This document shows, one piece after another, positions 3,900 through 60,549 of a stretch of DNA of 64,000 bases (its first letter is position 1; each line of letters starts with the position of its first letter). Made by a program: the position numbers and the translations under genes. The notes beneath the pieces are model-generated. The model worked only from the letters and a program-made list of their open reading frames with translations, was not told the origin of the DNA and ran no database searches. The DNA lies in the NCBI RefSeq assembly GCF_001677475.2, contig NZ_CP015229.1. One strand, written 5' to 3'. Origin of the DNA: Escherichia coli. Its GTDB lineage: Bacteria > Pseudomonadota > Gammaproteobacteria > Enterobacterales > Enterobacteriaceae.

Positions 3900-4793
3900 A
3901 TGGAACAGCTGCGTGCCGAATTAAGCCATTTACTGGGCGAAAAACTCAGTCGTATTGAGTGCGTCAATGAAAAAGCGGATACGGCGTTGTGGGCTTTGTA
4001 TGACAGCCAGGGAAACCCAATGCCGTTAATGGCAAGAAGCTTTAGTACGCCCGGAAAAGCCCGACAACTGGCATGGAAAACCACCATGCTGGCAAGAAGT
4101 GGGACTGTCCGTATGCCGACTATTTATGGTGTGATGACGCATGAAGAACACCCCGGCCCCGATGTCCTGCTACTGGAGCGGATGCGTGGTGTTTCGGTGG
4201 AGGCACCAGCCCGAACACCAGAACGCTGGGAACAACTCAAAGATCAAATCGTTGAAGCCTTACTGGCCTGGCACCGTCAGGACAGTCGCGGTTGCGTCGG
4301 CGCGGTCGACAATACTCAGGAAAATTTCTGGCCCTCATGGTACCGGCAACATGTTGAAGTGCTATGGACCACGCTCAATCAGTTCAATAACACCGGTCTA
4401 ACGATGCAGGATAAGCGGATCCTGTTTCGTACTCGCGAATGTCTCCCGGCATTATTTGAAGGCTTTAACGACAATTGTGTGCTGATTCACGGTAACTTCT
4501 GTTTACGCAGCATGCTGAAAGATTCGCGCAGCGATCAGTTACTGGCGATGGTCGGGCCGGGACTAATGCTTTGGGCACCGCGAGAATACGAACTGTTCCG
4601 ACTAATGGATAATTCTCTGGCGGAAGATTTGCTCTGGAGTTACCTGCAACGCGCGCCAGTGGCGGAGTCATTCATCTGGCGGCGTTGGTTGTATGTGTTA
4701 TGGGATGAAGTTGCGCAACTGGTTAATACCGGACGATTTAGTCGGCGCAACTTCGATCTGGCATCAAAATCACTCTTGCCGTGGCTCGCCTGA
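3900..4793 (+). CDS. ycbJ: Putative phosphotransferase/kinase-like protein YcbJ
   Basis: 297 aa ORF, conserved position; 3' end overlaps convergent elyC by 24 bp. Confidence 0.7.
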   Translation: MEQLRAELSHLLGEKLSRIECVNEKADTALWALYDSQGNPMPLMARSFSTPGKARQLAWKTTMLARSGTVRMPTIYGVMTHEEHPGPDVLLLERMRGVSVEAPARTPERWEQLKDQIVEALLAWHRQDSRGCVGAVDNTQENFWPSWYRQHVEVLWTTLNQFNNTGLTMQDKRILFRTRECLPALFEGFNDNCVLIHGNFCLRSMLKDSRSDQLLAMVGPGLMLWAPREYELFRLMDNSLAEDLLWSYLQRAPVAESFIWRRWLYVLWDEVAQLVNTGRFSRRNFDLASKSLLPWLA

Positions 4794-5549
4794 CGAACCT
4801 TTTAGCCACTGCCAGATGCGGCCAAGCGTTTCATAGCCAACACGATCGCTATGCATCAACCAAACCGGAGAAGGGATTGCCCGTTCCCACGGATTAAGCG
4901 GCGAGTTGATGGCCAACTGATTCGCCGGGGCTGGCAGCGGATTTAGCCCTTCCTGCTGAAAAAAGATCATCGCCCGCGGCAGATGTGATGCGGAGGTCAC
5001 CAGCAGGAAAGGGGCGTCACCAATTGCCTGTTTCACTGCCGCAGCTTCTTCTTCGGTATCTTTTGGCAAATCCAGAGTGATAATTTGCTCGCGCGGCACG
5101 CCCAGCGATTGCGCAACTCGGGCACCTACTTCGGCTGTACTCACCGTATTGGTTTTTGCTACGCCTCCCGTGAAGATCAGTTTTGATCCCGGATTTTCGC
5201 GCCATAAGCGAATACCTTCATTCAGGCGGGGCAGACTGTTATTGATTAAATTCGAGCTTGGTGCCCACTGCGGGTTCCAGGTATAACCACCTCCGAGCAC
5301 CACGATATAGTCCACTTTTTGCGAATTATTCCATGTCGGATAGGTGCTTTCGATGGGACGCAGCAGGCGGTCGGCTACCGGTTGCAAACTCAATAACAAG
5401 AGTGCCAGCCACCCAATGCTAATAAAAATCTTCCCGGTTTTTTGAAAACGGCTAAACCACAGCAGCGCCAGGCCAGCGCCAATAATCAACAACATCAGCG
5501 GAAGTGGCAGCAACATATTGCCAATCACTTTTTTCAGTGTAAAAAGCAT
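4770..5549 (-). CDS. elyC: Envelope biogenesis factor ElyC (DUF218), N-terminal membrane anchor
   Basis: 259 aa; hydrophobic N-terminus; recalled YcbC/ElyC sequence. Confidence 0.7.
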   Translation of the reverse strand: MLFTLKKVIGNMLLPLPLMLLIIGAGLALLWFSRFQKTGKIFISIGWLALLLLSLQPVADRLLRPIESTYPTWNNSQKVDYIVVLGGGYTWNPQWAPSSNLINNSLPRLNEGIRLWRENPGSKLIFTGGVAKTNTVSTAEVGARVAQSLGVPREQIITLDLPKDTEEEAAAVKQAIGDAPFLLVTSASHLPRAMIFFQQEGLNPLPAPANQLAINSPLNPWERAIPSPVWLMHSDRVGYETLGRIWQWLKGSSGEPRQE

Positions 5550-15796: not shown

Positions 15797-16444
15797 ATGA
15801 ACTATCGTATTATTCCGGTCACCGCATTCTCCCAGAACTGTTCATTGATCTGGTGTGAACAAACCCGTCTGGCCGCACTGGTCGATCCTGGCGGCGATGC
15901 GGAAAAAATCAAACAGGAAGTTGACGCCAGCGGCCTGACACTGATGCAGATCCTGCTGACGCATGGTCATCTGGACCACGTTGGTGCAGCGACGGAACTG
16001 GCGCAACATTACGGCGTGCCGGTTTTTGGCCCGGAAAAAGAAGATGAGTTCTGGCTGCAAGGCTTGCCTGCGCAAAGTCGTATGTTTGGGCTGGAAGAGT
16101 GCCAGCCGCTGACGCCAGATCGTTGGCTGAACGAAGGCGATACCATCAGCATAGGGAATGTGACTTTACAGGTGTTACATTGCCCTGGGCATACGCCGGG
16201 TCATGTCGTGTTTTTTGATGAGCGGGCAAAGCTGCTGATTTCTGGCGATGTTATTTTCAAAGGCGGAGTAGGGCGCAGTGACTTCCCGCGTGGCGATCAT
16301 AATCAACTGATTTCTTCAATCAAAGATAAATTGCTGCCACTGGGGGATGACGTGACATTTATTCCGGGTCACGGACCATTATCCACACTTGGTTATGAAC
16401 GCCTGCATAATCCCTTCCTGCAAGACGAAATGCCCGTCTGGTAA
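15797..16444 (+). CDS. gloC: Metallo-beta-lactamase-fold hydroxyacylglutathione hydrolase GloC (YcbL)
   Basis: 215 aa; metal-binding THGHLDH motif. Confidence 0.8.
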
Positions 16445-16455
16445 GGCACACATAA

Positions 16456-16487
16456 AAAAGCCCGCTTTTCAGCGGGCTTCATTGTTT
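16456..16487. terminator. Bidirectional hairpin terminator between convergent gloC and aspC
   Basis: aagcccgct-tttc-agcgggctt with A/T runs on both sides. Confidence 0.75.
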
Positions 16488-16494
16488 TTAACGC

Positions 16495-17685
16495 TTACAG
16501 CACTGCCACAATCGCTTCGCACAGCGGAGCCATGTTATCTGGTGTCATCCCGGCCACGTTTACGCGACCAGAAGCAACAGCATACACGCCAAACTCTTCG
16601 CGCAGACGCAGCACTTGTTCTTTTGTCAGGCCACTGAAGGAGAACATGCCGTTCTGTTTGATGATAAAGCTGAAGTCGCGGTTTGCGCCTTTTTCCTGCA
16701 GCGTATTGACGAACAACTGACGCATACGCTGAATACGCTGGCGCATATCAGTCAGCTCTTGTTCCCAAATCGCACGTAACGCATCGTTGCTCAGGATGGT
16801 GGCAACAACAGAAGCGCCGTGTGCTGGTGGGTTAGAGTAGTTAGCGCGAATCGCCGCTTTCATTTGGCTGAATGCGCGATCAACGGTTTCACTGTCGGCA
16901 GCAACCAGAGTACAAGCGCCAACACGCTCGTTGTACAGGCCAAAGTTTTTAGAGTAGGAACTGGCAACAATCAGCTCTTTATGCATAGCCGCGAAAGCGC
17001 GCAGTCCTTCAGCATCTTCTTCCAGACCACGGGCAAAACCCTGGTAAGCGAAGTCAAACAGCGGTAACCAGCCTTTCTCAACGGAGAGTTGTGCCAGTGT
17101 CTGCCATTGTTCCAGCGTAGGGTCGATACCGGTTGGGTTATGGCAGCAGCCATGGAACAGCACTACGTCGCCAGCCTGAGCTTCGTTCAGGCTGTTAATC
17201 AGTGCATCGAAGTCAAGGGTGTGGTTTTCCGCATCATAATAAGCGTATTCACGAACTTCCAGACCTGCAGAGTTAAAGACGCTCTTATGGTTCGGCCAGC
17301 TTGGGTTGCTCACCCACACACGCTTAACGCTGGTATTTTTTGCCAGGAAATCGGCAGCCACGCGTAGTGCGCCAGTGCCACCCGGAGTCTGTGCCGTGCG
17401 AGCACGTTTGTCATTGATCAGGGCGCTACCTTTACCAAACAGCAGTTCCTGAGTGCAGCGACCAAATTCAGGGATGCCGTCAATGCCGAGGTAATTTTTG
17501 GTGGTTTCATTTTCGAGCAGATACTGTTCAGCCTTTTTCACGCTGGTCAGTACCGGGGTTTTGCCCGTCTCATCTTTATAGACACCAATCCCGAGGTTAA
17601 TTTTGCCGGGACGTTCATCGGCACGAAACAGATCGGCCAGGCCCAGAATCGGGTCGGCAGGAGCGGCGGTAATGTTCTCAAACAT
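16495..17685 (-). CDS. aspC: Aspartate aminotransferase
   Basis: 396 aa; PLP-lysine context [14 protein letters not shown]. Confidence 0.95.
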
Positions 17686-25208: not shown

Positions 25209-25249
25209 AAAATAACCGAATGGCGGCAATAGCGCCGCCATTCGGGAAT
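25209..25249. terminator. Bidirectional terminator between convergent pepN and ssuB
   Basis: 12-bp perfect stem ccgaatggcggc / gccgccattcgg. Confidence 0.75.
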
Positions 25250-29486: not shown

Positions 29487-29687
29487 ACTCTCTCCTTATA
29501 ACCAATTGTTCTTGTTTTGTTAACATTGATAACAATTCGGTCAGTCTGACAGAGGGCGTCCGCGAGTCGAAATGATTTATCTGAGGAAGAAAAGCCAAAA
29601 AAAGCATAAAAAAAGCGCAATAAGAAAACGTTTGCTATTTATTGCCACAGGTCAATTCCCTTTTGGTCCGAACTCGCACATAATACG

Positions 29688-29722
29688 CCCCCGGTTTGCA
29701 CACCGGGAATCCAGGAGAGTTC
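29688..29722 (+). promoter_or_regulatory. pyrD leader hairpin and Shine-Dalgarno
   Basis: cccgg-tttgcaca-ccggg hairpin immediately 5' of AGGAG SD and pyrD ATG; pyrimidine-dependent leader control is a recalled mechanism, not shown by the sequence. Confidence 0.5.
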
Positions 29723-30906: not shown

Positions 30907-31449
30907 ATGCGAATTAAACCAGACGATAACTGGCGTTGGTATTACGATGAAGAGCACGATCGAATGATGCTCGATTTAGCCAATGGTATGCTATTTCGCT
31001 CACGTTTTGCGCGCAAAATGTTGACTCCAGATGCCTTTTCTCCCGCAGGCTTTTGCGTTGACGACGCCGCGCTCTATTTCTCATTTGAAGAAAAATGCCG
31101 CGATTTTAATTTATCTAAAGAACAAAAAGCCGAACTGGTGCTTAATGCGCTGGTAGCAATTCGTTATCTCAAACCGCAAATGCCGAAAAGCTGGCATTTT
31201 GTTTCCCATGGTGAAATGTGGGTGCCCATGCCGGGCGATGCGGCCTGCGTTTGGTTGAGCGACACTCACGAGCAAGTCAATTTGCTGGTCGTTGAATCTG
31301 GCGAAAATGCCGCACTATGCCTGCTGGCACAACCCTGCGTTGTTATTGCGGGTCGCGCGATGCAGATGGGCGACGCCATCAAAATCATGAACGACAGGCT
31401 GAAACCGCAGGTTAATGTTGACAGCTTCAGCCTCGAACAGGCAGTCTAA
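30907..31449 (+). CDS. zapC: Cell division protein ZapC
   Basis: ATG at 30907 ([24 protein letters not shown]), 180 aa. Confidence 0.8.
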
Positions 31450-32555
31450 CGTGCCAACTTAAGTGCAGTCTTCGGTACACAGCTACAGCAAAGAATGGTG
31501 CCATCATCGCCCATTGCTGATTTTTTCAGCGGCGTGACTTCGCCTTCTAAAAGCTGAACACGGCAACTTCCACAAATGCCCGCGCGGCAAGAATAAGGGA
31601 TACGAATTCCCTGATTTTCTAATTGCTCCAGCAACACTTGTTGGTTATTTCCACGAAATGCCCGTCCCTGCCAGTCAATATCTACATTTGCGTCCGATTG
31701 TTGCGTGATGTTGGCGGTATCATCAGCGGCAGTTGCGCCGTAAACTTTCGCCGGAGCCGTTGCCAGAATTTCCACCTCATCGCCAACGCGAATCACGCCG
31801 CTATTACGGGCAATTAAATTCTGACCAAAATCGACATCGCCGTTATTCTGGGCAGTGCGGAAAGATTGCAATGTTTTTAATGGTTCGCCTGCCGGATGTT
31901 TTTGCCCTTTTTCTGGGCTGACGGTGGTGAAAATACAGCGGCTACAAGGTTTAACCACATCAAACACCACATCACCAATGCGAATCACTTTCCAGCGATC
32001 TTCTTCCCAGGCGGACGCGCCGGAAACCACCAGATTGGGGCGGAATTGCTCCATTTTTACACTGGCCGGACAACGTTGTTGGAGATCACGTAACGAGGCT
32101 TCGTTAGCAAGAAGGTAAGGATAGCCATCAGCAAATGACAGGGGTACAGTGTTGTGGCGTTTCACGCGCCGCGTCATTTGTGGCCCCACCCAGCGCAACT
32201 GCACTTCGCGGGAGAAAAATCCACTTAGCCATTTGTTGATCGCGTCTGGCGCAATTCGCGCGGTAAAATGTGTGCCCCAAACTTCGGTTGGTGCGTCTTG
32301 TGTGGCGAAATCAGCAAAACGAACATATGCGCTACTGCCATCTGGTGCGGTGAGATGCAAGCCATCATGCACAGGTGAAGGAGTAAACCGTACCATCTGG
32401 GGAAACTGGCGAGCGGTAATAAACGTACCGTCAGGTTCCGTGATCATAAAGATGCGATCGAAGGCCAGACCACTGACATCTGCCAGGGCATGTGTAAGAC
32501 CAATGCCGCGCATCGATTTAACAGGATGAATAAAAAGCCGGGTTAATGTCGCCAC
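31446..32555 (-). CDS. ycbX: MOSC-domain protein with C-terminal 2Fe-2S ferredoxin domain (YcbX)
   Basis: 369 aa; C-terminal cysteine cluster CRAGICGSC; convergent with zapC, stop codons overlap. Confidence 0.8.
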
Positions 32556-40847: not shown

Positions 40848-40887
40848 TTAAAAAGAAACCTCCGCATTGCGGAGGTTTCGCCTTTTG
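40848..40887. terminator. Bidirectional terminator between convergent rmf and fabA
   Basis: cctccgc-att-gcggagg hairpin flanked by A and T runs. Confidence 0.75.
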
Positions 40888-43924: not shown

Positions 43925-43956
43925 AAAAAAAACCCCGCAGCAGCGGGGTTTTTTAC
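43925..43956. terminator. Bidirectional terminator between convergent matP and ompA
   Basis: A8-ccccgc-agca-gcgggg-T6. Confidence 0.85.
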
Positions 43957-45153: not shown

Positions 45154-45376
45154 GATGTAAAGTCTACAACGTAGTTGAAAACTTACAAGTGTGAACTCCG
45201 TCAGGCATATGAAAAAAAAGTCTTGTATAAGGTACGTTTAATCTTTTTTGTCAGCGACAATTTACAGAAGAAAATCGCGGAAACCGCTTCAGACAAGCCT
45301 CTGCAAGGAAAATTAGTCACGACTGAAAGCATTGGCTGGGCGACAAAAAAAGTTCCAGGATTAATCCTAAATTTAC

Positions 45377-45886
45377 TTAATGATACAAATTAGAGTGAAT
45401 TTTTAGCCCGGAAAGTTGTCTCGTTGCGTGAGAGGATGCGCTTACCGGACGCATAATAAACCCCATAGCGTTACCTTCATTTGCCGCATCAACAAGTTCA
45501 GCATGCTCTTCTTCAGTCAAATCATCTGCCAACCAACCGATCACCACACTGTAATTGCCCGTGCGTAAAGCGCGAACCATTGACTCCACGGTGTGGCAAG
45601 GGGAGAGCTGGTTAATCTGCATTACTTTCGTTAAGGGTAGCCCAGATGCCTGAACCCATTCCCGACTCAGTTTTTGTTGCGGTGTTAACCAGAGTTGCCA
45701 GCGCGATTGCTGACCGAGTTGCTGTAACAATGGCAACAGTAGAAGTTGCGTCATCATGGGCTGATCTTCGCGATAGACAACTTCACTGATAAGCCCGGCT
45801 GTAGTGTTTTCCGTAGAGACACGCGCAATTTTACTTGCTGCGGATGAGAACGACGAAGAACGATGTGCATAGCCTGAAGTGTACAT
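45377..45886 (-). CDS. sulA: SOS cell division inhibitor SulA
   Basis: ATG at 45886 ([23 protein letters not shown]), 169 aa. Confidence 0.9.
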
Positions 45887-45908
45887 AATCAATCCAGCCC
45901 CTGTGAGT

Positions 45909-45928
45909 TACTGTATGGATGTACAGTA
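45909..45928 (-). promoter_or_regulatory. LexA operator (SOS box) of sulA
   Basis: Minus strand TACTGTACATCCATACAGTA, fits CTGT-N8-ACAG consensus, 23 bp upstream of sulA ATG. Confidence 0.85.
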
Positions 45929-46104
45929 CATCCAGTGACGACAAAGATCAACCCTATTTTCGGAAAGAGCCTCGCAAATTTTGTCGTTGGTGACGGGAAA
46001 ACATAAATTAATCTTGCCCCTTAAGAATAAGTTGCCTATTTTCGTAGTTAACGGATCCGTTAATGTGAATCATTCTTTTACGTTATGATTTTAAAAGGAA
46101 TTTT

Positions 46105-46734
46105 ATGAAAAGCCTCTCCTATAAGCGGATCTATAAATCACAAGAATACCTGGCAACGTTGGGCACAATTGAATACCGATCATTGTTTGGTAGTTACAGC
46201 CTGACCGTTGACGACACGGTGTTTGCGATGGTTTCTGATGGTGAGTTGTATCTTCGGGCTTGTGAGCAAAGTGCACAGTACTGTGTAAAACATCCGCCTG
46301 TCTGGCTGACATATAAAAAGTGTGGCCGATCCGTTACCCTCAATTACTATCGGGTTGATGAAAGTCTATGGCGAAATCAACTGAAGCTGGTGCGTCTGTC
46401 GAAATATTCTCTCGATGCTGCGCTGAAAGAGAAAAGCACGCGCAATACCCGGGAAAGACTGAAAGATTTGCCCAATATGTCTTTTCATCTGGAAGCGATT
46501 CTCGGGGAGGTGGGGATTAAGGATGTACGGGCGTTACGTATACTTGGGGCAAAAATGTGTTGGTTGCGACTGCGGCAGCAAAACAGTCTGGTGACAGAAA
46601 AGATTCTGTTTATGCTTGAAGGGGCCATTATCGGCATTCATGAAGCTGCGCTCCCGGTGGCACGCCGCCAGGAGCTTGCAGAATGGGCTGACTCTCTTAC
46701 GCCGAAACAGGAGTTTCCTGCGGAACTTGAGTAA
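46105..46734 (+). CDS. sxy: Competence regulator Sxy/TfoX
   Basis: 209 aa; matches recalled Sxy N-terminus MKSLSYKRIYKSQEYLATLG. Confidence 0.85.
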   Translation: MKSLSYKRIYKSQEYLATLGTIEYRSLFGSYSLTVDDTVFAMVSDGELYLRACEQSAQYCVKHPPVWLTYKKCGRSVTLNYYRVDESLWRNQLKLVRLSKYSLDAALKEKSTRNTRERLKDLPNMSFHLEAILGEVGIKDVRALRILGAKMCWLRLRQQNSLVTEKILFMLEGAIIGIHEAALPVARRQELAEWADSLTPKQEFPAELE

Positions 46735-48859
46735 TCTGGCGTTGCAGACGACCAATCTCTGGCAGTAATGCAATCAATAACCCAACTTGTTGTACGACCA
46801 GAGGTTCTTTGCTGTCTGCCCGTGGTTCAAGTTGCTGCATCCGCTGTTTCAGGCCAGCTAATGCCTGATTGACGCGTTCTTCATCAGCAGGTTGATGATG
46901 TAACGCGTCATCAACATAGCAAACTGCGTCATCAAGAAACGCCAGAATTTCAGGATTAGTTAACTGCTCCCGGTGAGCACCGAGGGCTGAGATATAGCTG
47001 GTAAACGTATGGTTAAGGCACAGCAACCGAAACGCGGCCTCACTAATTTGCGGGGTAACGTTCGGCTCGCTGGACATATTTGATACCACCGACGCCAGTT
47101 CAGCATCACGGTTGTGTGCATCGCGGCGGGCAATACGATACGCCAGACGGTTATCACGCCCCTGATGGTATTGCTCCAGTATGGCATCGAGATAGCGACA
47201 GTTGGCCTCGGTGGCGCGTTCGAGCATGCGCGGCAGATTGCGAAACTTCCAGTCAGGCCAGATGTAGCTCACCGCCGCCCACGCAATGGCACAACCAATC
47301 AGCGTATCGATTACGCGAGGTAACGCCACTTCAAAACCTTCACCCAGCAAGTTAAAACAAAGTAGCACCAAAAGTGTGATGAACATCGTTGCATGGGCAT
47401 ATTGCACGTTACGGAAGGCAAAAAAGAGCACGCCGGTAATAACCAGTAGCACCAGCTGCCCTTCCAGTGACGGCACAAACCACAGCACAGGAATGCCAAT
47501 GGCGATACCTACCAGCGTCCCAATAATCCTTAACTTCAGGCGGTGGCGAGTGGCGTTATAGTTTGGCTGGCAGACAAACAAACTTGTCAGCAAGATCCAA
47601 TACCCGTGATGCATTCCGGTTATCTGAATGATGGCGTAGCCGAAGCACAACACCAGCGACATTCTTACCGCATGACGGAAGAGGGCGGATTCCGGCGTGA
47701 AGTGACGGCTAAGACGCAGCCAGATATCACTCAATCCGTGCGGGCTGTCATCAGCGAGCTCATTTTCGTCATTATTATGGGGCAGTGCCTGGGCCTGTTC
47801 TGATTCAATTGTTGCCAGTTGGGCATCAATAGCGCGTAAATTGTTCAGCAAAAATCCCAGTGTTTTGAGTAAATCGGCAGGCGCGCCGTTATCGCGCATC
47901 CGCTCCAGCGCAGCATCAATATGCGTAAAAGCGCGCTCAAAATGCGGATCATGTTGATAAGGCTGGCGCAGCAAAATACAGCGTGACAGTTGCTGGCACG
48001 CCTGGCCCTGCATCGACATCAGCCGCTGAAAACGGAACAGCACGTCGCTGTGGCGAAAATGTTCACGCAATGTTTGATACTGAATATGAGAAGAGCTGGC
48101 ACGCTCGTGAATATCCTGCGCGACGAAGTAATAATGCAGCGTGCGACGCGTTCCCCGTTGACCACGATCGCCACGTAAGCGGGTCAGCAGCGAGAGTTTC
48201 GTCTGATTCAATGTCGCCATCAGCTGACCGTTGGCGAGAGCCAAATCGTACAGCGGTGCCTGGCTTTCATCTTCAATATCAGGATCAAACATGCGCGACT
48301 TGAGCTCAAGATAACGCGCCAGTTGTTCATAGCAACGCGCCAGGTTGTCCTGCAGCGGGCGGACCGGGAACAGCAGATGACCAATAAGTGTCAGGACGTT
48401 GTACCAGACGGCACCGGCCAGCAGATACATCGGCTGCTGATACCAGTGCTCATACAGTGATGTTCCCAACATAGTGTAAATGGCGATCAGCAATGCACCG
48501 AAGGCAATTGTTGCATAGCGTTGACCCAGACCGCCGAGCAAAATGAAGCCGCTGGTAGAGAGCGTTAAGCCAATCGCAAATAGCCAGGGCCAGGGAAACA
48601 GCAATTCTACTGAGGCCGAGGCGATAAAAAAGCAGAACAGCGTAATGATGAGGTTACGCAAACGTCCCGCCAGTCGGTCATCGAGATCGGTCAGCGCCGC
48701 TGCCACCATCCCCAGCGTTAGCGGAATCGTCAGTTTTACATCACCCAGCCACCACGGAAACGCTGTGGTTCCACAAAGCGCAATAAAAATACGCGCGTAA
48801 TACAGCCAGGCGCTGTTCCAGGTATAGCGTTTGAGCAAAGGACTTAGCATAAAGGCCAT
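46697..48859 (-). CDS. yccS: Putative inner membrane efflux/FUSC-family protein YccS
   Basis: 720-aa ORF (alternative ATG at 48850 gives 717 aa); two blocks of TM helices; 3' end overlaps convergent sxy by 38 bp. Confidence 0.8.
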   Translation of the reverse strand: MAFMLSPLLKRYTWNSAWLYYARIFIALCGTTAFPWWLGDVKLTIPLTLGMVAAALTDLDDRLAGRLRNLIITLFCFFIASASVELLFPWPWLFAIGLTLSTSGFILLGGLGQRYATIAFGALLIAIYTMLGTSLYEHWYQQPMYLLAGAVWYNVLTLIGHLLFPVRPLQDNLARCYEQLARYLELKSRMFDPDIEDESQAPLYDLALANGQLMATLNQTKLSLLTRLRGDRGQRGTRRTLHYYFVAQDIHERASSSHIQYQTLREHFRHSDVLFRFQRLMSMQGQACQQLSRCILLRQPYQHDPHFERAFTHIDAALERMRDNGAPADLLKTLGFLLNNLRAIDAQLATIESEQAQALPHNNDENELADDSPHGLSDIWLRLSRHFTPESALFRHAVRMSLVLCFGYAIIQITGMHHGYWILLTSLFVCQPNYNATRHRLKLRIIGTLVGIAIGIPVLWFVPSLEGQLVLLVITGVLFFAFRNVQYAHATMFITLLVLLCFNLLGEGFEVALPRVIDTLIGCAIAWAAVSYIWPDWKFRNLPRMLERATEANCRYLDAILEQYHQGRDNRLAYRIARRDAHNRDAELASVVSNMSSEPNVTPQISEAAFRLLCLNHTFTSYISALGAHREQLTNPEILAFLDDAVCYVDDALHHQPADEERVNQALAGLKQRMQQLEPRADSKEPLVVQQVGLLIALLPEIGRLQRQITQVPQETPVSA

Positions 48860-48868
48860 ATTAGTGGA

Positions 48869-49315
48869 TTATTGGAAACGACGACGTGCATTGGCTTCAC
48901 GCGCAGCTTGCGCTGTTTCTACCGATACCACGCGACGACCAACCGGCCATAGTGCAATAGCGGCAATTTTAAAGTTCGCAATGCCGACAGGAATGCCAAT
49001 GATTGAAATACATTGTGCGATGCCCGTTGCAATGTGCATCAGGCATAACCACCAGCCAAAGAAAATCAGCCAGAAAATATTCAATACCGTACCGCCAGTA
49101 TTTAGCAGCACATTTTTGCCAGCCGGGTTCAGTTCATCGACATGAATAGCTTCATTGCCATAAGGCACCAGAGACAGTTTAGTGATCTCCCAGCAGGATC
49201 GTGTCAGCGGTAAGGTAAAAATCAGCACAATACTGACCAGAGTCGCCAACAGCCAGCCCAGAGTGGTGGCAAATCCGCCAAGCACAAAGTTCAGAATGTT
49301 CAAAACGGTACGCAT
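48869..49315 (-). CDS. yccF: Inner membrane protein YccF (DUF307)
   Basis: 148 aa, highly hydrophobic; 9 bp upstream of yccS. Confidence 0.8.
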   Translation of the reverse strand: MRTVLNILNFVLGGFATTLGWLLATLVSIVLIFTLPLTRSCWEITKLSLVPYGNEAIHVDELNPAGKNVLLNTGGTVLNIFWLIFFGWWLCLMHIATGIAQCISIIGIPVGIANFKIAAIALWPVGRRVVSVETAQAAREANARRRFQ

Positions 49316-49437
49316 AAAACCTCGCTTTACTGTGGTTTTCAGTAATGGGCGGCAATTGTAACGTTTTTTTGGGCTGGAGCACGTTTTCTCTGACGGTTAC
49401 ACTGATAAGAAATCATTTCGTGTGGATCTACAGAGTC

Positions 49438-51492
49438 ATGGAACTGAAAGCGACAACGCTTGGAAAACGTCTGGCACAGCACCCTTACGATCGGGCGGTG
49501 ATCCTCAATGCCGGGATTAAAGTCTCCGGCGATCGCCACGAATACCTTATTCCTTTCAATCAATTACTGGCGATTCACTGTAAGCGCGGTCTGGTATGGG
49601 GCGAGCTGGAATTTGTACTGCCGGGCGAAAAAGTGGTGCGTCTGCACGGTACCGAATGGGGCGAGACGCAGCGTTTTTACCATCATCTTGATGCTCACTG
49701 GCGGCGGTGGAGTAGCGAGATGAGCGAAATTGCATCTGGTGTTTTACAGCAGCAACTGGATTTAATTGCCACGCGCACCGGAGAAAATAAATGGCTGACG
49801 CGTGAGCAAACCTCTGGCGTGCAGCAACAAATCCGCCAGGCTTTGTCGGCGTTGCCGTTGCCGGTTAACCGACTGGAAGAATTCGATAACTGCCGTGAGG
49901 CGTGGCGTAAATGTCAGGCCTGGTTGAAAGATATTGAAAGCGCTCGGTTGCAGCATAATCAGGCGTATACCGAAGCCATGCTTACCGAGTATGCGGATTT
50001 TTTCCGCCAGGTCGAGTCTTCACCGCTGAATCCGGCGCAGGCCCGGGCAGTCGTTAATGGCGAGCATTCTTTGTTAGTGCTGGCTGGTGCAGGAAGCGGA
50101 AAAACGTCGGTGCTGGTGGCCCGTGCAGGCTGGTTGCTGGCGCGTGGTGAAGCGTCCCCTGAGCAAATTTTATTGCTGGCGTTTGGTCGCAAAGCCGCTG
50201 AAGAGATGGACGAGCGTATTCGCGAACGGCTACATACCGAAGACATTACCGCACGCACGTTTCATGCGCTGGCGCTGCATATTATTCAGCAGGGCAGCAA
50301 AAAAGTTCCGATAGTCAGCAAACTGGAAAATGATACCGCTGCCCGTCATGAACTCTTTATTGCTGAGTGGCGCAAGCAATGCAGCGAAAAGAAAGCGCAG
50401 GCGAAGGGCTGGCGGCAATGGCTGACGGAAGAAATGCAGTGGTCAGTGCCAGAAGGTAACTTCTGGGATGATGAAAAATTACAGCGTCGTCTTGCCTCAC
50501 GCCTCGATCGTTGGGTAAGTCTGATGCGGATGCACGGTGGTGCACAGGCAGAAATGATTGCCAGTGCACCCGAAGAGATTCGCGATCTGTTCAGTAAACG
50601 TATCAAGTTGATGGCTCCGTTATTAAAAGCCTGGAAAGGTGCGCTGAAGGCAGAAAACGCTGTCGATTTTTCGGGCCTTATTCACCAGGCGATTGTGATT
50701 CTGGAGAAAGGTCGCTTTATCAGCCCGTGGAAGCATATTCTGGTTGATGAATTTCAGGATATCTCGCCGCAGCGCGCAGCGTTGTTAGCGGCATTACGCA
50801 AGCAAAATAGTCAAACGACGTTGTTCGCTGTTGGTGATGACTGGCAGGCGATTTACCGTTTCAGCGGTGCGCAAATGTCGCTCACCACCGCTTTCCATGA
50901 AAACTTTGGTGAAGGCGATCGCTGTGATTTAGACACGACTTACCGTTTTAACAGTCGTATCGGTGAGGTGGCAAACCGTTTTATTCAGCAGAACCCAGGC
51001 CAGCTGAAAAAGCCGCTAAACAGCTTAACCAATGGAGACAAAAAAGCCGTCACGTTATTGGATGAGAGTCAACTTGACGCTTTGCTGGATAAGCTCTCTG
51101 GTTATGCCAAACCGGAAGAGCGCATTCTGATCCTGGCGCGTTATCATCACATGAGGCCTGCCAGCCTGGAAAAAGCGGCAACACGCTGGCCGAAGTTGCA
51201 AATCGACTTTATGACCATTCATGCCAGCAAAGGGCAACAGGCGGATTACGTCATCATCGTTGGCTTGCAGGAGGGGAGTGATGGTTTTCCGGCTGCGGCG
51301 CGGGAGTCGATTATGGAAGAGGCGCTACTACCCCCGGTTGAGGATTTCCCGGACGCTGAAGAACGGCGGTTAATGTACGTGGCGCTGACCCGGGCACGCC
51401 ATCGGGTATGGGCATTATTTAACAAAGAGAATCCCTCTCCCTTTGTCGAAATACTGAAAAATCTGGATGTGCCGGTGGCGAGAAAACCGTAG
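49438..51492 (+). CDS. helD: DNA helicase IV
   Basis: ATG at 49438 (MELKATTLGKRLAQHPYDRAV), 684 aa; UvrD-type Walker A AGAGSGKTS. Confidence 0.9.
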   Translation: MELKATTLGKRLAQHPYDRAVILNAGIKVSGDRHEYLIPFNQLLAIHCKRGLVWGELEFVLPGEKVVRLHGTEWGETQRFYHHLDAHWRRWSSEMSEIASGVLQQQLDLIATRTGENKWLTREQTSGVQQQIRQALSALPLPVNRLEEFDNCREAWRKCQAWLKDIESARLQHNQAYTEAMLTEYADFFRQVESSPLNPAQARAVVNGEHSLLVLAGAGSGKTSVLVARAGWLLARGEASPEQILLLAFGRKAAEEMDERIRERLHTEDITARTFHALALHIIQQGSKKVPIVSKLENDTAARHELFIAEWRKQCSEKKAQAKGWRQWLTEEMQWSVPEGNFWDDEKLQRRLASRLDRWVSLMRMHGGAQAEMIASAPEEIRDLFSKRIKLMAPLLKAWKGALKAENAVDFSGLIHQAIVILEKGRFISPWKHILVDEFQDISPQRAALLAALRKQNSQTTLFAVGDDWQAIYRFSGAQMSLTTAFHENFGEGDRCDLDTTYRFNSRIGEVANRFIQQNPGQLKKPLNSLTNGDKKAVTLLDESQLDALLDKLSGYAKPEERILILARYHHMRPASLEKAATRWPKLQIDFMTIHASKGQQADYVIIVGLQEGSDGFPAAARESIMEEALLPPVEDFPDAEERRLMYVALTRARHRVWALFNKENPSPFVEILKNLDVPVARKP

Positions 51493-51523
51493 GAAACAGG
51501 TGGCGTTTGCCACCTGTGCAATA

Positions 51524-51982
51524 TTACTTCAGACGGTCCGCGAGATAACGTTGATAATCGGGGATCAGAATATCGACCGCGTCGTTGAAATGCGGTGACT
51601 GGATAATGAAGTCTGCCGTTGCCACGTTGGTGGCGACCGGAATGTTCCATACCGTCGCCAGACGCAGCAAGGCTTTCACGTCAGGATCGTGCGGCACGGC
51701 ATTTAGTGGATCCCAGAAGAAAATCAATACATCAATTTTCCCTTCTGAGATCAATGCGCCAACCTGCTGGTCACCCCCCATTGGGCCACTCAACATCGCG
51801 TTGACGTTCATGCCGGTCGCGCGGGAAATTAAGTTACCGGTAGTGCCTGTTGCATACAGTACGTGTTGTTCCAGTAACGGTTGATGCCGTTCCACCCAGC
51901 TCATCAGCATTTGTTTGCAGTGATCGTGTGCCACCAGCGCAATATGTTTCCGCGCAGGTAAAGTGCGTGTCGTCAGTTCCAT
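51524..51982 (-). CDS. mgsA: Methylglyoxal synthase
   Basis: ATG at 51982 ([23 protein letters not shown]), 152 aa. Confidence 0.9.
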
Positions 51983-53326: not shown

Positions 53327-53363
53327 AAAATCCCCGGAAGGCTAAAACCTTCCGGGGATTTGT
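53325..53363. terminator. Bidirectional terminator between convergent yccU and hspQ
   Basis: tccccggaagg-ctaaaa-ccttccgggga hairpin flanked by A6 and T-rich runs. Confidence 0.85.
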
Positions 53364-55030: not shown

Positions 55031-55309
55031 ATGTCGAAAGTCTGCATAATTGCCTGGGTTTACGGGCGAGTTCAGGGCGTAGGATTTCGCTACACCACGC
55101 AGTACGAAGCGAAAAAACTGGGCTTAACCGGGTATGCCAAAAATCTTGACGATGGCAGCGTGGAAGTGGTTGCCAGCGGTGAAGAAGGGCAGGTGGAAAA
55201 ATTAATGCAGTGGTTAAAAAGTGGCGGCCCGCGTTCTGCGCGTGTAGAACGGGTGCTTAGCGAGCCGCATCATCCCTCGGGGGAATTAACCGATTTTCGT
55301 ATCCGTTAA
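55031..55309 (+). CDS. yccX: Acylphosphatase
   Basis: ATG at 55031; 92 aa; acylphosphatase motif [11 protein letters not shown]. Confidence 0.85.
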
Positions 55310-55635
55310 ATACATTTTACCGGTTTAGGCAGGCCAGCAATTTTGGTGGCTTGCTTTGCCGGACCTTTCGGAAACAGTCGGTATAAATAGCGGCTGTTAC
55401 CTTTTTCTTCGCCAAATTTATTCGCCATCGCTTTTACCAGCATACGAATCGCCGGAGAAGTATTGAATTCCAGATAGAAATCACGCACAAAACGCACCAC
55501 TTCCCAGTGTTCTGGCGACAGCGAAATCCCTTCGTTCTCTGCAATCACCACTGCCAGCGGCTCACTCCACTGGCTGCTTTCTTTGAGATAGCCTTCGGTA
55601 TCCGTTTCTATCTCTTTACCTTCGAAGATCAGCAT
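55306..55635 (-). CDS. tusE: Sulfur relay protein TusE (DsrC-like)
   Basis: ATG at 55635 ([18 protein letters not shown]), 109 aa; C-terminal PKPVKCI. Confidence 0.85.
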
Positions 55636-56792: not shown

Positions 56793-57812
56793 CTACTTAC
56801 TGACCACAAGCGGCAAATCCAGTGTTGGCGTGATTTTGGTTTTACGATCGTAAATCAACACCTGATTTTCTGTTTTGTGTCCACTGAAAATTTGTTTGTC
56901 GCGACTGCTGCCTTCGTAATCTGAAATCCCTTTGGCTTTTATGTCATGGAAGTTGCACCCAAACGGAACGCCGGCTTTTTGCTCGGCTGCACGTTTAGCC
57001 TGATTCCACCAGTTGTTCAGCGTCTTGGCTATTACCTTCCCGCCTTTGGTTGTGTTGATCACATACTCGCATGTGCCGGAAGATACATTTCGGGCTAACT
57101 GGATCGCCGTACGTAATCGCGGAGACCATTCCTTGATTTGTTTAGTGCCAGTCTTGTTTTGCTCAATGTAAATCCCTTTATCCATAATATCCTGCCATTT
57201 CAGCTCGAGTACATCACCGAGCCTTGCCGCACAAAGATAGGATATCTCCATTGCAATACGTAACTGTGGAATTGCTTCCGCATATATTGCTGCATACTGT
57301 TCATCGGTGATGTAAACAGTACGGGCTTTAAGTGTGAATTTTCTGACACCTTTGCATGGATTATTTTTCACATACCCACGCTCATATCCCCATCCGTATA
57401 CACGGCTCAGACTTGCCAGTTCATGGTTTGCCTGGGTCTTGCTCTCAAGTCCTCGCTTATCCATGAAAATTCTTACCTGTTCAATTTTTACATTATCAGC
57501 AAGCACTTTTCCGAATACTGCCAACAATGCCCTTTGATGTTGCCGATAATCTTTTTGGGTTCGGGGGGCCAGTTCTGTAAATGCAGGGGAGTCCATAAAC
57601 ATGTGCCATAATTTAGCTACTGTCATTATGTTGTGGAGTTTTGCTTTTTCCAGCTCATAATTTTGCCAGACTTTAGCTACGCTGGTTTCCCGCACTCTTC
57701 CGAGCCCTATAGTTCTTGTGCTTCCTTCGGGTTTCCATACGTAACTGTAACCGTTCGATCTAACACGCGGTGGTAGTGCATTATCTTTTTTGTTTTTTCT
57801 TGGTCTTCCCAT
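56793..57812 (-). CDS. int: Tyrosine-type site-specific integrase (lambda Int family)
   Basis: 339 aa; C-terminal catalytic region GHKTENQVLIYDRK resembles lambda Int LLGHKSDTMASQY; 3' end faces the att site. Confidence 0.9.
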   Translation of the reverse strand: MGRPRKNKKDNALPPRVRSNGYSYVWKPEGSTRTIGLGRVRETSVAKVWQNYELEKAKLHNIMTVAKLWHMFMDSPAFTELAPRTQKDYRQHQRALLAVFGKVLADNVKIEQVRIFMDKRGLESKTQANHELASLSRVYGWGYERGYVKNNPCKGVRKFTLKARTVYITDEQYAAIYAEAIPQLRIAMEISYLCAARLGDVLELKWQDIMDKGIYIEQNKTGTKQIKEWSPRLRTAIQLARNVSSGTCEYVINTTKGGKVIAKTLNNWWNQAKRAAEQKAGVPFGCNFHDIKAKGISDYEGSSRDKQIFSGHKTENQVLIYDRKTKITPTLDLPLVVSK

Positions 57813-58098: not shown

Positions 58099-60549
58099 TT
58101 AAAAATCAACCGGATTCGGGATCAGTTTTTGCCAGATTGCTGAAACGTATTTTGCCTGGTAACGAGCGTCATCAAGTGCATTATGGCGCTCACCTTCGAA
58201 TGGGATAGCTGTTCTGGCATCGAAGTCTATGGCTTTCCCCAGCTCAACGATTGTGCGTACATCGCGATCGTTGCAGTAGCGCCAAGGGCAGGGGATACCC
58301 TGTCGTTCGTATGAACGGCGTAAAATCACGTTGTCGAAGTTGGCCCCATTACCCCAGACCTGAACAAAAAATTCACCGGAGTTTTCGTCGATAAATTCCC
58401 GCAATTGCAGCAGTGCATCATCTAACGGGATTTCATCGGTCAGAATGGCAGATTGCGCCTCGCGTGATTGCTTAAGCCACCATTTTATGGTGTCACGATT
58501 AATGACTCCGCCAGCAGTTTCCAGATCGATGGTCTTACTAAATTCCGGCCCCATATCTCCGGTTTGCGGATCGAAAAATATTGCACCTATTGAGATAATC
58601 GGGGCATCGGGATTTTTTCCCATGGTTTCAAGGTCGATCATAAGATGGTCACATGACCTGCTTGTGGATGTGATATTGTGATAACCGTTCACCTTAATTA
58701 AGGGATCTGTTGCTTCGCCAGTTTCATTATCGCTGGCGTGATGCTGATTGCCTCCAGTGTTCTCCTTGTGTGGATGTTCAGCGCCTTCCATTTCCTCCGG
58801 ATCATTCTCCTGAGCTTCAACCTGATTCTCTTCATCGAATGTTTCCTGGTATGTTGCGTTTCCCATGACCGCGCCACAGTCAGGACAGTTGCCGCCGCTG
58901 CTCTGACCGCAGACGGTGCAGACTTTTTCCGGTTCCTGTTGCACTACTGGTTCGGATTGTTTCGTTTCTGGTTCGTTTTGTTGCGCATTTGGGCTGTTTT
59001 GTTCCGCTTTCTGGTCGTTCTGTGCCGTTTCTTGCTGGTTCTGGTTCACAGAATCGCGGGTTTCAATCCCCTTCACCCATTTCGGATCATTCGGGTCGCT
59101 AATCCCTGCAACAAATTCACCACGTGATGCAGCGAGCAACTGACTGGCGTCAGGCAGGCTGATATTGGCTGCCTGCATAATTTTGTTTACTTCGTCAGCG
59201 GTAACTTTTACCTGATTAACCGGATCTATCTGTGCCTGAGTATCCAGCGATTGCGTGTCCTGGCGAAGTTCAGTTGTATCCGGCTCCATTGCTTCAGTCG
59301 TTGCCTGTTCATCTGCCATTGCGTCAGACGGTTGTGATTTTTCATCATTATTTTTTTCTTCTTCTGTTTCGCGTTTAGCAGCCAGTTCGCGGTTAACTTC
59401 TTCCTGGATATCTTTTTCCGGTGTATGTCGTGCAGCAGCGAGAGTTTCTTCGGTAGGGTTCTCGTGATCAGTCTCCGTTAAGTGGGCGTTGATATACTCC
59501 TGAAGGCGTCCCGGGTAGAGATAAAGTTCAGGGTGAGCACTTCGGATAAGTGCAAAAATAGCGGCACGGGAATAATCCAGAATACCAGGGGTTGCGCGAA
59601 GTGCTGCGGACCATTCTTTGAACGGACTTTCTTTCTTCCGGACGACTTCTTTTGCGCGACGATAAACGCTGCCCGGAATTTCATAAATATTAAAATCCAT
59701 CGGAAGTGTGGCCGCTGCAATCTCCACATCCAGCGTATCGAAGGTGTGTACTAAATTCGGATTGCGATCGGTTTTGTTCCCGCCGCCAGCATTAGCACCG
59801 GAAGCCGTGCGGATGATGCGTGAAACACGATTCCCCTTCATCCACTCTTTTGTAAGCAGACCGCGATCGGTGTAGTCAGCGCCCAGGTATGCTTCGAAAA
59901 AAGCAGTCATCAGTCCCAGGTCTGAATTGCCAGGATTAGGGAAAACTTTGTCAGTGTCACGAACCAGTTTGTGGAGATCGCGAATTTCCAGCGGTTCGAG
60001 TTGCGCTGCTTTATTTGAGATGGCCAGCGCGGTAACGGCGGGAAGTTTTTCATCCTGTGCGTTATGTAATGCGCGCAGTTCGCCCCGCGAAACGTGAGTG
60101 ATCGGTTTTTCGCTGCCGTGCTGAGCAAGCCAGCGAATGGGAAGTATCTGGCCAGAAACCGGGAGTAGCATATTCTCCTCAATATCAGTCATGTCTTCGC
60201 CGTTGACGTTGGTATTGTCAGTGCTGGCTGGTTTATCCTGAACAGAGGGCGCGATAAATACCATTGTGATACCATCTTCCCCGCCTTTTTCGTATCGGTT
60301 GCAGAATTCGGTATCAAACACACCTTCCGGAGGCAGGTCATTCACAACGGGTAAATGGACGCGGACGGGTTTTTTAAAGTCGTCTTCATCATAATCGTTG
60401 TCATCCATTGCGGTAATACAACGGGAGATGGCAACAGATAATTTTTTTGCTGTGGTCCAGTAAAAACCACCTTTAATTCCCAGGCGTTTTCTGACTTTGT
60501 CATTTTTTGCTTCGCAATATAGCGCAAATTCTTCTTTTTCAGTGCTCAT
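58099..60549 (-). CDS. Large prophage protein: unknown N-terminal domain, acidic/Gln-rich low-complexity linker, CxxC-x9-CxxC zinc ribbon, C-terminal DnaQ-like (DEDDh) 3'-5' exonuclease domain
   Basis: 816 aa; exonuclease motifs IDLETMG (Exo I), WGNGANFDNVIL (Exo II), HNALDDARY (Exo III) in last ~185 aa (about 58102-58656); SD GAGG 7 nt upstream of ATG. Confidence 0.75.
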   Translation of the reverse strand: MSTEKEEFALYCEAKNDKVRKRLGIKGGFYWTTAKKLSVAISRCITAMDDNDYDEDDFKKPVRVHLPVVNDLPPEGVFDTEFCNRYEKGGEDGITMVFIAPSVQDKPASTDNTNVNGEDMTDIEENMLLPVSGQILPIRWLAQHGSEKPITHVSRGELRALHNAQDEKLPAVTALAISNKAAQLEPLEIRDLHKLVRDTDKVFPNPGNSDLGLMTAFFEAYLGADYTDRGLLTKEWMKGNRVSRIIRTASGANAGGGNKTDRNPNLVHTFDTLDVEIAAATLPMDFNIYEIPGSVYRRAKEVVRKKESPFKEWSAALRATPGILDYSRAAIFALIRSAHPELYLYPGRLQEYINAHLTETDHENPTEETLAAARHTPEKDIQEEVNRELAAKRETEEEKNNDEKSQPSDAMADEQATTEAMEPDTTELRQDTQSLDTQAQIDPVNQVKVTADEVNKIMQAANISLPDASQLLAASRGEFVAGISDPNDPKWVKGIETRDSVNQNQQETAQNDQKAEQNSPNAQQNEPETKQSEPVVQQEPEKVCTVCGQSSGGNCPDCGAVMGNATYQETFDEENQVEAQENDPEEMEGAEHPHKENTGGNQHHASDNETGEATDPLIKVNGYHNITSTSRSCDHLMIDLETMGKNPDAPIISIGAIFFDPQTGDMGPEFSKTIDLETAGGVINRDTIKWWLKQSREAQSAILTDEIPLDDALLQLREFIDENSGEFFVQVWGNGANFDNVILRRSYERQGIPCPWRYCNDRDVRTIVELGKAIDFDARTAIPFEGERHNALDDARYQAKYVSAIWQKLIPNPVDF

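Follow-up and report, generated by a model that had tools for sequence, protein, structure and literature searches.

The analysed window, a stretch of 64,000 nucleotides of the Escherichia coli chromosome, runs from msbA to past serT and corresponds to approximately 967.8-1031.7 kb of the K-12 chromosome. The elf operon of K-12 is missing from this window, and a prophage begins after serT. Four pairs of convergent genes in the window overlap tail to tail by 38, 24, 4, and 4 bp, each stop codon being located inside the reading frame of the partner gene. The longest overlap (46697-46734, both strands) is shared by sxy and yccS and is seen in the ORF lists and in the raw sequence; it is identical in K-12. 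The sxy gene (46105-46734, plus strand; stop codon TAA), annotated in K-12 and by PGAP, encodes a protein with the Pfam domains TfoX_N (residues 14-106) and TfoX_C (residues 116-194), and yccS (46697-48859, minus strand; stop codon TAA) encodes a FUSC-like putative transporter of 720 aa with a FUSC-like Pfam match. The latter gene is the second in the yccF-yccS operon (Conway 2014, PMC4161252). The ycbJ (3900-4793, plus strand) and elyC (4770-5549, minus strand) genes, both taken from the ORF list and the K-12 annotation, overlap by 24 bp at 4770-4793. The zapC gene (30907-31449, plus strand; stop codon TAA; start from the K-12 gene length) and ycbX (31446-32555, minus strand; stop codon TAG) share 4 bp at 31446-31449, where their stop codons interlock in the sequence CTAA. 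Finally, yccX (55031-55309, plus strand; start from the K-12 gene length) and tusE (55306-55635, minus strand; ORF list and K-12 annotation) share 4 bp on both strands at 55306-55309.

A sequence-only reading of this window had listed the first three of these pairs; yccX/tusE, the fourth, was absent from it. The coordinates that it gave for sxy/yccS (38 bp), ycbJ/elyC (24 bp), and zapC/ycbX (31446-31449) agree with the ORF lists and the raw sequence, and its gene names are right, the same genes having the same ends in the RefSeq entry of K-12 MG1655. That reading would have lost its ground if the annotated ends had differed so as to abolish the overlap; the reference annotation gives identical overlaps. 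All four overlaps are present in MG1655, where all eight genes are annotated, and a closely related PGAP-annotated strain also carries the sxy/yccS, zapC/ycbX, and yccX/tusE overlaps in its annotation. A 201-bp segment covering the sxy/yccS junction was found in 5425 of 5426 complete E. coli genomes, with both genes annotated across the junction in all matches listed. The start codons of two genes are ambiguous (the yccS product has 720 aa in the window and 717 aa with the K-12 start, the zapC product either 180 or 192 aa), which is irrelevant to the overlaps because stop codons are unambiguous and fix the 3' ends of the reading frames. Both Sxy and YccS have Pfam domains and homologues across Enterobacteriaceae and are thus products of real genes on opposite strands.

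Alignment of homologues shows that conservation of Sxy extends to W194, the end of the TfoX_C domain, and that the final 15 residues (195-209) are variable in sequence, in homologues of 201-209 aa. In YccS, conservation ends with the motif LLPEIxRLQxQ(I/V), and the next 2-14 residues vary between species. The 38-bp overlap is therefore located wholly within the non-conserved C-terminal tails of both proteins. The variable stretch between the last conserved residue of Sxy, W194, and the last conserved isoleucine of YccS (RLQRQI) comprises 46 nt (46687-46732, both strands) and is translated in both directions, into residues 195-209 of Sxy and the last 11 aa of YccS. The smallest C-terminal truncation in the abstract of a preprint on E. 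coli Sxy removes 37 aa and does not bear on the last 15 residues. In the nucleotide alignment, we observed no conservation in the 46-nt stretch between the cores. The E. coli overlap together with this stretch has no significant RNA structure (z of about 0), and the mean fold z of the inter-core stretch across 70 species is only -0.5. A hairpin or terminator within the overlap itself was rejected on the grounds of this z score in E. coli and the lack of sequence conservation across species.

The sxy/yccS locus was fetched from 80 Enterobacteriaceae species, in 72 of which both stop codons could be placed. The genes overlap in 69 of these 72 species, by 4, 7, 11, 14, 16, 20, 23, 32, 35, 38, 41, 44, 47, or 80 bp; the overlap does not exceed 47 bp in 66 of the 72 species, and the three species without an overlap have a distance of 0 bp, a gap of 11 nt, and a gap of 249 nt, respectively. 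The distance between the conserved cores of the two proteins is much more uniform, amounting to 46 nt in 45 species and to 36-47 nt in 71 of the 72. Among relatives further removed, with 43-47% Sxy identity, the gene order sulA-sxy-yccS-yccF-helD is mostly retained, and the two genes either overlap at the junction, by 4 or 26 bp, or are separated by 2 nt. As judged from these comparisons of genomic sequences, the spacer-less arrangement is old, as it occurs throughout the set of Enterobacteriaceae species and also in the relatives further removed. The same data bear on the explanation that one of the two frames ends earlier than annotated and that there is no true coding overlap. The tails are unconserved and lie outside the Pfam domains, as this explanation would predict; nevertheless, we regard it as extremely unlikely, given that the end of an ORF is fixed by the first in-frame stop codon and the two frames are open to 46734 and 46697, that curated K-12 and PGAP annotations agree on these ends, and that the same overlap recurs in 69 of 72 species.

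To derive the chance expectation for the overlap, the conserved cores of the E. coli genes were kept fixed and the 46 nt between them were shuffled or randomised in 20,000 trials. Of these trials, 85% yielded an overlap, the median length being about 90 bp; thus, the sxy/yccS overlap is what chance predicts at this spacing, and the overlaps observed are shorter than the random-spacer expectation. The non-random feature of the junction is the very short and stable spacing between the two cores. The positions of the stop codons drift, which argues that the length of the overlap is not selected. What selection appears to maintain is the placement of both stop codons within the inter-core stretch, with neither frame entering the conserved core of the partner.

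The window contains ten convergent junctions, six with a gap and four with an overlap, and the two groups differ in their terminators. The terminator scan revealed strong hairpins at five of the six gapped junctions, with gaps of 41-75 bp, namely gloC/aspC (50-bp gap, hairpin at 16457-16480), pepN/ssuB (41-bp gap, 25216-25245), rmf/fabA (69-bp gap, 40855-40879), matP/ompA (75-bp gap, 43927-43954), and yccU/hspQ (44-bp gap, 53328-53361); several of these hairpins scored on both strands. No strong hairpin was detected by the scan at the sixth gapped junction, helD/mgsA (31-bp gap), or at any of the four overlapping junctions, ycbJ/elyC (24 bp), zapC/ycbX (4 bp), sxy/yccS (38 bp), and yccX/tusE (4 bp), and none of the latter four has a canonical intrinsic terminator consisting of a hairpin and a U-tract. 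This contrast, by which hairpin terminators mark gapped but not overlapping convergent junctions, is an addition to the sequence-only reading, which had stated that there is no room for a terminator between sxy and yccS. The statement holds in so far as the junction has no canonical terminator, but it overlooked the conserved hairpin described below, which is embedded in sxy 21 nt beyond the end of yccS. In the absence of intergenic space or a terminator, each mRNA must carry sequence antisense to its partner, and since no intergenic terminator is possible, the signals that end the transcripts sit inside the partner gene.

Published transcriptomic data agree with the claim that the sxy and yccS transcripts extend into each other, which the lack of intergenic space already implies. 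In total RNA-seq, the ratio of antisense to sense reads is 30% for sxy, 33% for yccS, 55% for ycbX, 35% for elyC, and 15% for ycbJ, as compared to 1-3% for kdsB, mukF, uup, and yccF. Antisense reads of 30-55% on sxy, yccS, ycbX, and elyC show that transcripts of the convergent genes overlap in vivo, which was the subject of the proposed strand-specific check. The antisense reads over yccS stop short of yccF. Capture with p19 yielded RNase III-type duplexes in yccS at low counts, at distances of 528 and 1420 nt beyond the end of sxy. The fading of antisense reads before yccF and the duplexes in yccS fit a long sxy read-through that decays within yccS. Both sxy and yccS are weakly expressed (16-63 RPM in total RNA). 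Conway 2014 (PMC4161252) described sxy and yccF-yccS as converging operons and found 276 of the 370 convergent operons to have complementary 3' ends. ExcludonFinder (NAR 2025, PMC12288877) includes all four pairs among the "convergent excludons" of MG1655, which are pairs with overlapping transcription units in 50% or more of 58 MG1655 transcriptomes. Thus, the overlaps are already known, both from the K-12 reference annotation and as published overlapping convergent transcription units.

The excludon listing raises the possibility that the overlap is kept because yccFS and sxy transcription exclude each other, through colliding polymerases, through RNase III cutting the sense-antisense duplex, or through both, which would add an extra control layer on the competence regulator Sxy. 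Several observations favour such a role: sxy/yccS belongs to the MG1655 excludome, and excludon pairs as a class show higher synteny and less co-expression in single cells (PMC12288877); the junction lacks a spacer across Enterobacteriaceae and beyond; antisense reads on both genes reach about 30% of sense reads; and paired duplexes of the RNase III type have been captured within yccS. Antisense interference by either of these two routes is implied by the term excludon and may occur. On the other hand, overlapping coding sequences make any co-expression score as an excludon by definition, the length and sequence of the overlap vary freely, from -11 to +80 bp, and an overlap is what chance predicts at a 46-nt spacing. 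With both genes expressed at the low level given above, collisions would be rare. No duplex labelled sxy occurs among the matches listed from Table S3 of the p19 data, and the two yccS duplexes are far from the 38-bp overlap; moreover, the p19 data are unusable for validating convergent excludons according to the ExcludonFinder authors (PMC12288877). The E. coli Sxy preprint consulted makes no mention of yccS or of antisense control, and in the literature searched we found no pair-specific evidence of one gene repressing its partner. We therefore consider functional exclusion, and likewise its action by collision or RNase III on the level of Sxy, to be unlikely; the variable length, the chance expectation, and the weak expression argue against a selected regulatory role for the sxy/yccS overlap. 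As a counterpoint, the persistence of a tight junction throughout the family and the synteny of excludons are compatible with selection for coupling.

The hairpin overlooked before is GC-rich, with a 10-bp stem, and occupies the sxy codons A182-L191 (46650-46675, considered here on the minus strand). Its arms, at 46650-46659 and 46666-46675, are GCTCCCGGTG and CGCCAGGAGC, with GCACGC as the 6-nt loop between them. On the minus strand, the hairpin begins 21 nt after the yccS stop codon; it has a folding energy of about -22 kcal/mol on either strand, with a fold z of about -2.6. Its 3' tail is GCAGCUUCAUG on the minus strand and UUGCAGAAUGG on the plus strand, neither of which is a U-rich tract, so it is not a canonical intrinsic terminator; the terminator scan makes no call on it. 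A scan of 45300-49500 with Rfam covariance models gave no meaningful match, only a chance snoRNA match (E = 0.82). The exact hairpin motif is present in 64 of the 80 species loci, at this site alone, and occurs once in the 64-kb window, and an origin from a REP-like repeated element was rejected for these reasons.

Comparison of 63 distinct sequences revealed that the stem is paired in 86.5% of cells, as compared to 27-57% with slid partners. Compensatory double changes were observed in 13 stem cells, a count reached by 0 of 500 shuffles, and the outer stem pair shows an association between A:T and G:C variants (Fisher p = 2e-4, with phylogeny not corrected for). In Kluyvera intermedia, a P184L change (CCG to CTG) at an otherwise near-invariant proline restores a stem pair. 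Elsewhere in sxy, the synonymous sites of Leu, Arg, and Pro codons are saturated (1.5-2.4 bits), whereas several codons of the stem are frozen, including Leu183 CTC (96%, a rare codon), Pro184 CCG (99%), Arg188 CGC (92%), and Glu190 GAG (94%). The covariation itself is modest, the covariation term of RNAalifold being about 0 and most stem columns being invariant, so the case for the hairpin rests mainly on the frozen rare codons and on a bias between the strands. On the minus strand 94.9% of the hairpin cells are paired, versus 86.5% on the plus strand, and at least 9 of the 10 stem pairs are kept in 58 of 63 sequences on the minus strand versus 46 of 63 on the plus strand. Most departures from the stem are C.A or A.C mismatches on the plus strand that correspond to G.U wobble pairs on the minus strand, the usual sign that the RNA under selection is the yccFS transcript. 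In the two species where sxy and yccS are separated, canonical hairpins are present in the gap and the sxy-internal hairpin has decayed. Of four distant relatives, one carries another hairpin in this part of sxy, perfectly paired over at least 12 bp; in the other three, no hairpin was found there. Judging from these sequence comparisons, we propose that the yccFS mRNA probably ends at the sxy-internal hairpin, which would act as its 3' stem-loop or terminator. It is also the only element at this locus that looks new and worth an experiment.

The nucleotide composition downstream of the stop codons gives a mixed picture with regard to Rho-dependent termination. In the direction of yccS transcription, the composition profile shows that the sxy-internal hairpin is followed by a C-rich and G-poor rut-like tract (46496-46646, minus strand; C 0.28-0.39, G 0.12-0.19) in the RNA that runs from yccS into antisense sxy; this tract may play a role in Rho loading. 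C-rich, G-poor RNA past the stop codon was likewise observed for tusE and elyC and in part for zapC. The RNA downstream of the sxy stop codon has no excess of C over G in the composition profile (C/G = 0.99). A stable hairpin is located inside yccS, 136 nt past the sxy stop codon (46871-46910, plus strand; -20.6 kcal/mol, no U-tract, empirical p = 0.036), but it is not conserved outside Escherichia, and the last 70 codons of yccS contain no frozen synonymous sites or conserved nucleotide element. We therefore rejected a conserved yccS element that ends sxy transcripts. Exceptionally stable 40-nt hairpins closely follow the stop codons of yccS (p = 0.018), yccX (p = 0.016), sxy (p = 0.036), and ycbX (p = 0.076), and the eight read-through directions of the four pairs give a combined p = 0.005 against a window-wide null.

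A mapped 3' end is available for zapC. The region where zapC transcripts end inside ycbX corresponds to 31499-31602 (plus strand), as mapped from the zapC stop codon using Adams et al. 2021 (PMC7815308). In that study, the Term-seq 3' end of zapC is at K-12 position 1006586, 92 nt inside ycbX, and the bicyclomycin-sensitive (Rho-dependent) region of zapC read-through into ycbX peaks at 1006647, with a Rho score of 7.2 and p = 1e-24. In the window, the 3' end corresponds to approximately 31541, immediately past a small hairpin, and the peak to approximately 31602. The tables of the same study contain no 3' end or Rho entry for sxy/yccFS (K-12 1021500-1022099), and the SMRT-Cappable-seq supplements contain no 3'-end entries for sxy or yccFS. 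The proposed check by 3'-end mapping is thus borne out in published data by zapC, which ends inside ycbX.

A further explanation for the sxy-internal hairpin is that it serves as a bidirectional terminator of the collision type, which pauses both polymerases so that head-on collisions end both transcripts. The hairpin is indeed GC-rich, devoid of a U-tract, and located where convergent transcription meets, in agreement with the class of Ju et al. 2019, which a later preprint (bioRxiv 10.1101/2022.10.23.513370) describes as Rho-independent and as different from intrinsic terminators. We nonetheless consider this very unlikely. The sxy stop codon comes 59 nt after the hairpin and would be missing from sxy mRNAs that end there, and the strand bias (94.9% versus 86.5% paired) indicates that the hairpin is used only on the yccS strand. 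There are no 3' ends of sxy or yccFS in the tables of Adams et al. 2021 (PMC7815308), and the preprint plots convergent pairs with high and low expression apart for termination efficiency, both genes considered here being weakly expressed. As described there, the class of Ju et al. 2019 resembles five of the six gapped junctions in the window, each with a single strong hairpin, and differs from the four overlapping junctions, which have no intergenic hairpin. Being upstream of the sxy stop codon and biased between strands, the sxy hairpin can serve the yccS direction only.

Taken together, these observations make it probable that the four cases are ordinary, catalogued overlaps of real genes that have lost their spacers and whose transcript ends have been displaced into the partner. 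Tail-to-tail overlaps of this kind are best explained as a neutral consequence of lost intergenic spacers: in sxy/yccS, both frames run on into a short unconstrained stretch until they meet a stop codon, and as a result dispensable C-terminal tails overlap. This neutral account, in which cores about 46 nt apart yield an overlap by chance alone, is a further addition to the sequence-only reading. At the RNA level, the yccFS mRNA would continue 21 nt past its stop codon into the hairpin embedded in sxy and then into the C-rich tract. Its transcription may be terminated by Rho within antisense sxy, the 3' end being trimmed back to the stem-loop and protected by it; alternatively, the hairpin may assist termination itself. 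Transcripts of sxy would run into yccS and most likely be ended by Rho, and those of zapC run into ycbX and are ended by Rho, as experiments have demonstrated (Adams et al. 2021, PMC7815308). Complementary 3' ends are an unavoidable by-product of such an arrangement, and antisense or collision effects, if there are any, are probably small for genes expressed this weakly.

The four pairs can be compared with several known systems. The MG1655 convergent excludons (PMC12288877) and the operons of Conway 2014 (PMC4161252) are classed by transcript overlap only. Here, in contrast, the coding sequences themselves overlap, so the overlap of transcripts is unavoidable and does not result from a leaky terminator, and mutual exclusion of these pairs remains putative. 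The dnaQ-rnh and ilvA-ilvY pairs, cited in Conway 2014 (PMC4161252), likewise have tail-to-tail coding ends. Prokaryotic overlaps with shared stop codons are similar to zapC/ycbX, as complementary stop codons interlock in the 4-bp cases; the overlaps of 38 and 24 bp are longer than this class but otherwise show nothing distinctive. The termination of zapC inside ycbX fits the Rho-dependent antisense read-through reported by Adams et al. 2021 (PMC7815308), where many "antisense" Rho regions are found downstream of convergent genes.

The sxy-internal hairpin has its own closest parallel. After the yccS stop codon, a hairpin precedes a C-rich tract, an arrangement that fits a model of trimmed stem-loops. 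Dar and Sorek reportedly found in 2018 that Rho-dependent 3' ends are trimmed back to such a structure. The sxy stem-loop differs from those cases in being embedded in a coding sequence, with its synonymous sites frozen across the family.

More tentatively, the hairpin at 46650-46675 could be an undescribed dual-use element, a 3' stem-loop or terminator of yccFS written in sxy codons, through which yccFS transcription truncates the sxy mRNA; we think this improbable but give it here for its consequences. If it is true, at least the last 85 nt of sxy would be obligatorily double-stranded with yccFS RNA, or polymerases would pause at the hairpin; in either case, yccFS transcription could cause the sxy mRNA to be cut or truncated before its stop codon and so contribute to the silence of Sxy, and the cost to sxy would be the frozen rare codons. 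We know of no natural condition that induces Sxy in E. coli. If the hairpin is the 3' end of yccFS, it would provide a clean example of a transcript-end signal within the protein-coding sequence of a neighbouring gene, and it would create a physical connection between a transporter operon and the competence regulator of E. coli, whose silence has long called for an explanation.

At the convergent pair of sxy (46105-46734, + strand) and yccS (46697-48859, - strand), the candidate 3'-end stem-loop of the yccFS mRNA is a conserved, GC-rich hairpin (46650-46675, - strand), which lies within sxy codons 182-191, with the yccS stop codon 21 nt before it. It contains frozen rare codons and shows some covariation, and the - strand is favoured by wobble pairs; the stem-loop lacks a U-tract and has no entry in Rfam. 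Among relatives, the sxy-yccS locus L089, whose Sxy is a distant homologue (43% identity), has a hairpin unlike the E. coli one in the corresponding stretch of sxy, perfectly paired over at least 12 bp (TCTGGCCAGCAC-CAGGAA-GTGCTGGCCAGA, L089 coordinates 4523-4552). In the UBA5654 locus (L054), the internal sxy hairpin has decayed, sxy and yccS are separated by 249 nt, and the gap contains two strong hairpins (L054 coordinates 4640-4860).

At the other end of sxy, synonymous sites are likewise frozen in several 5' codons (46108-46146) when 72 species are compared, namely K2 AAA (90%), Y6 TAT (89%), Y10 TAT (98%), and E14 GAA (100%), which may reflect 5' mRNA structure or a constraint on the initiation region. 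These codons recall the 5' RNA structure described for sxy of Haemophilus influenzae (PMC2248739).

Over sxy-yccS (45900-49000), an identity to the window of at least 99% is reached by only 217 of the 5426 complete E. coli genomes; most show 95-99%, and the top match is a soil/drain isolate. The source strain thus belongs to a less-sampled lineage. At ~29490-29700, the window lacks the seven-gene elf/ycb fimbrial operon elfADCG-ycbUVF (~7 kb), which both K-12 and strain VCSW5 carry between ssuE and pyrD. Directly after tRNA-Ser (serT), where the hya operon comes next in K-12, the window departs from that genome (56592-64000): a phage-type integrase is encoded at 56793-57812 and a RecE/exonuclease VIII-like protein at 58099-60549; thus, a prophage is integrated at serT.

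The gap between the convergent genes gloC and aspC (16444-16495) measures 50 bp here, 49 bp in VCSW5, and 221 bp in K-12, which therefore has an additional insert of ~170 bp, possibly a REP-type element, beside the bidirectional hairpin. The 31-bp helD/mgsA gap (51492-51524) is the only gapped convergent junction in the window with no predicted hairpin. Since a Rho-dependent region antisense to mgsA was reported at K-12 position 1026889 (Adams et al.), helD transcription appears to end via Rho within mgsA.

Hairpins past stop codons were also identified in two other overlapping convergent pairs. In yccX/tusE, a hairpin inside tusE (55322-55361, + strand; -22.6 kcal/mol), preceded by the yccX stop codon 12 nt before it, is very stable: only 0.06% of 40-nt windows rank as high (empirical p = 0.016). 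In zapC/ycbX, a hairpin of -19.4 kcal/mol (31395-31434) is located 11 nt beyond the ycbX stop codon. Transcript-end hairpins hidden in the partner gene may be a general feature of overlapping pairs.
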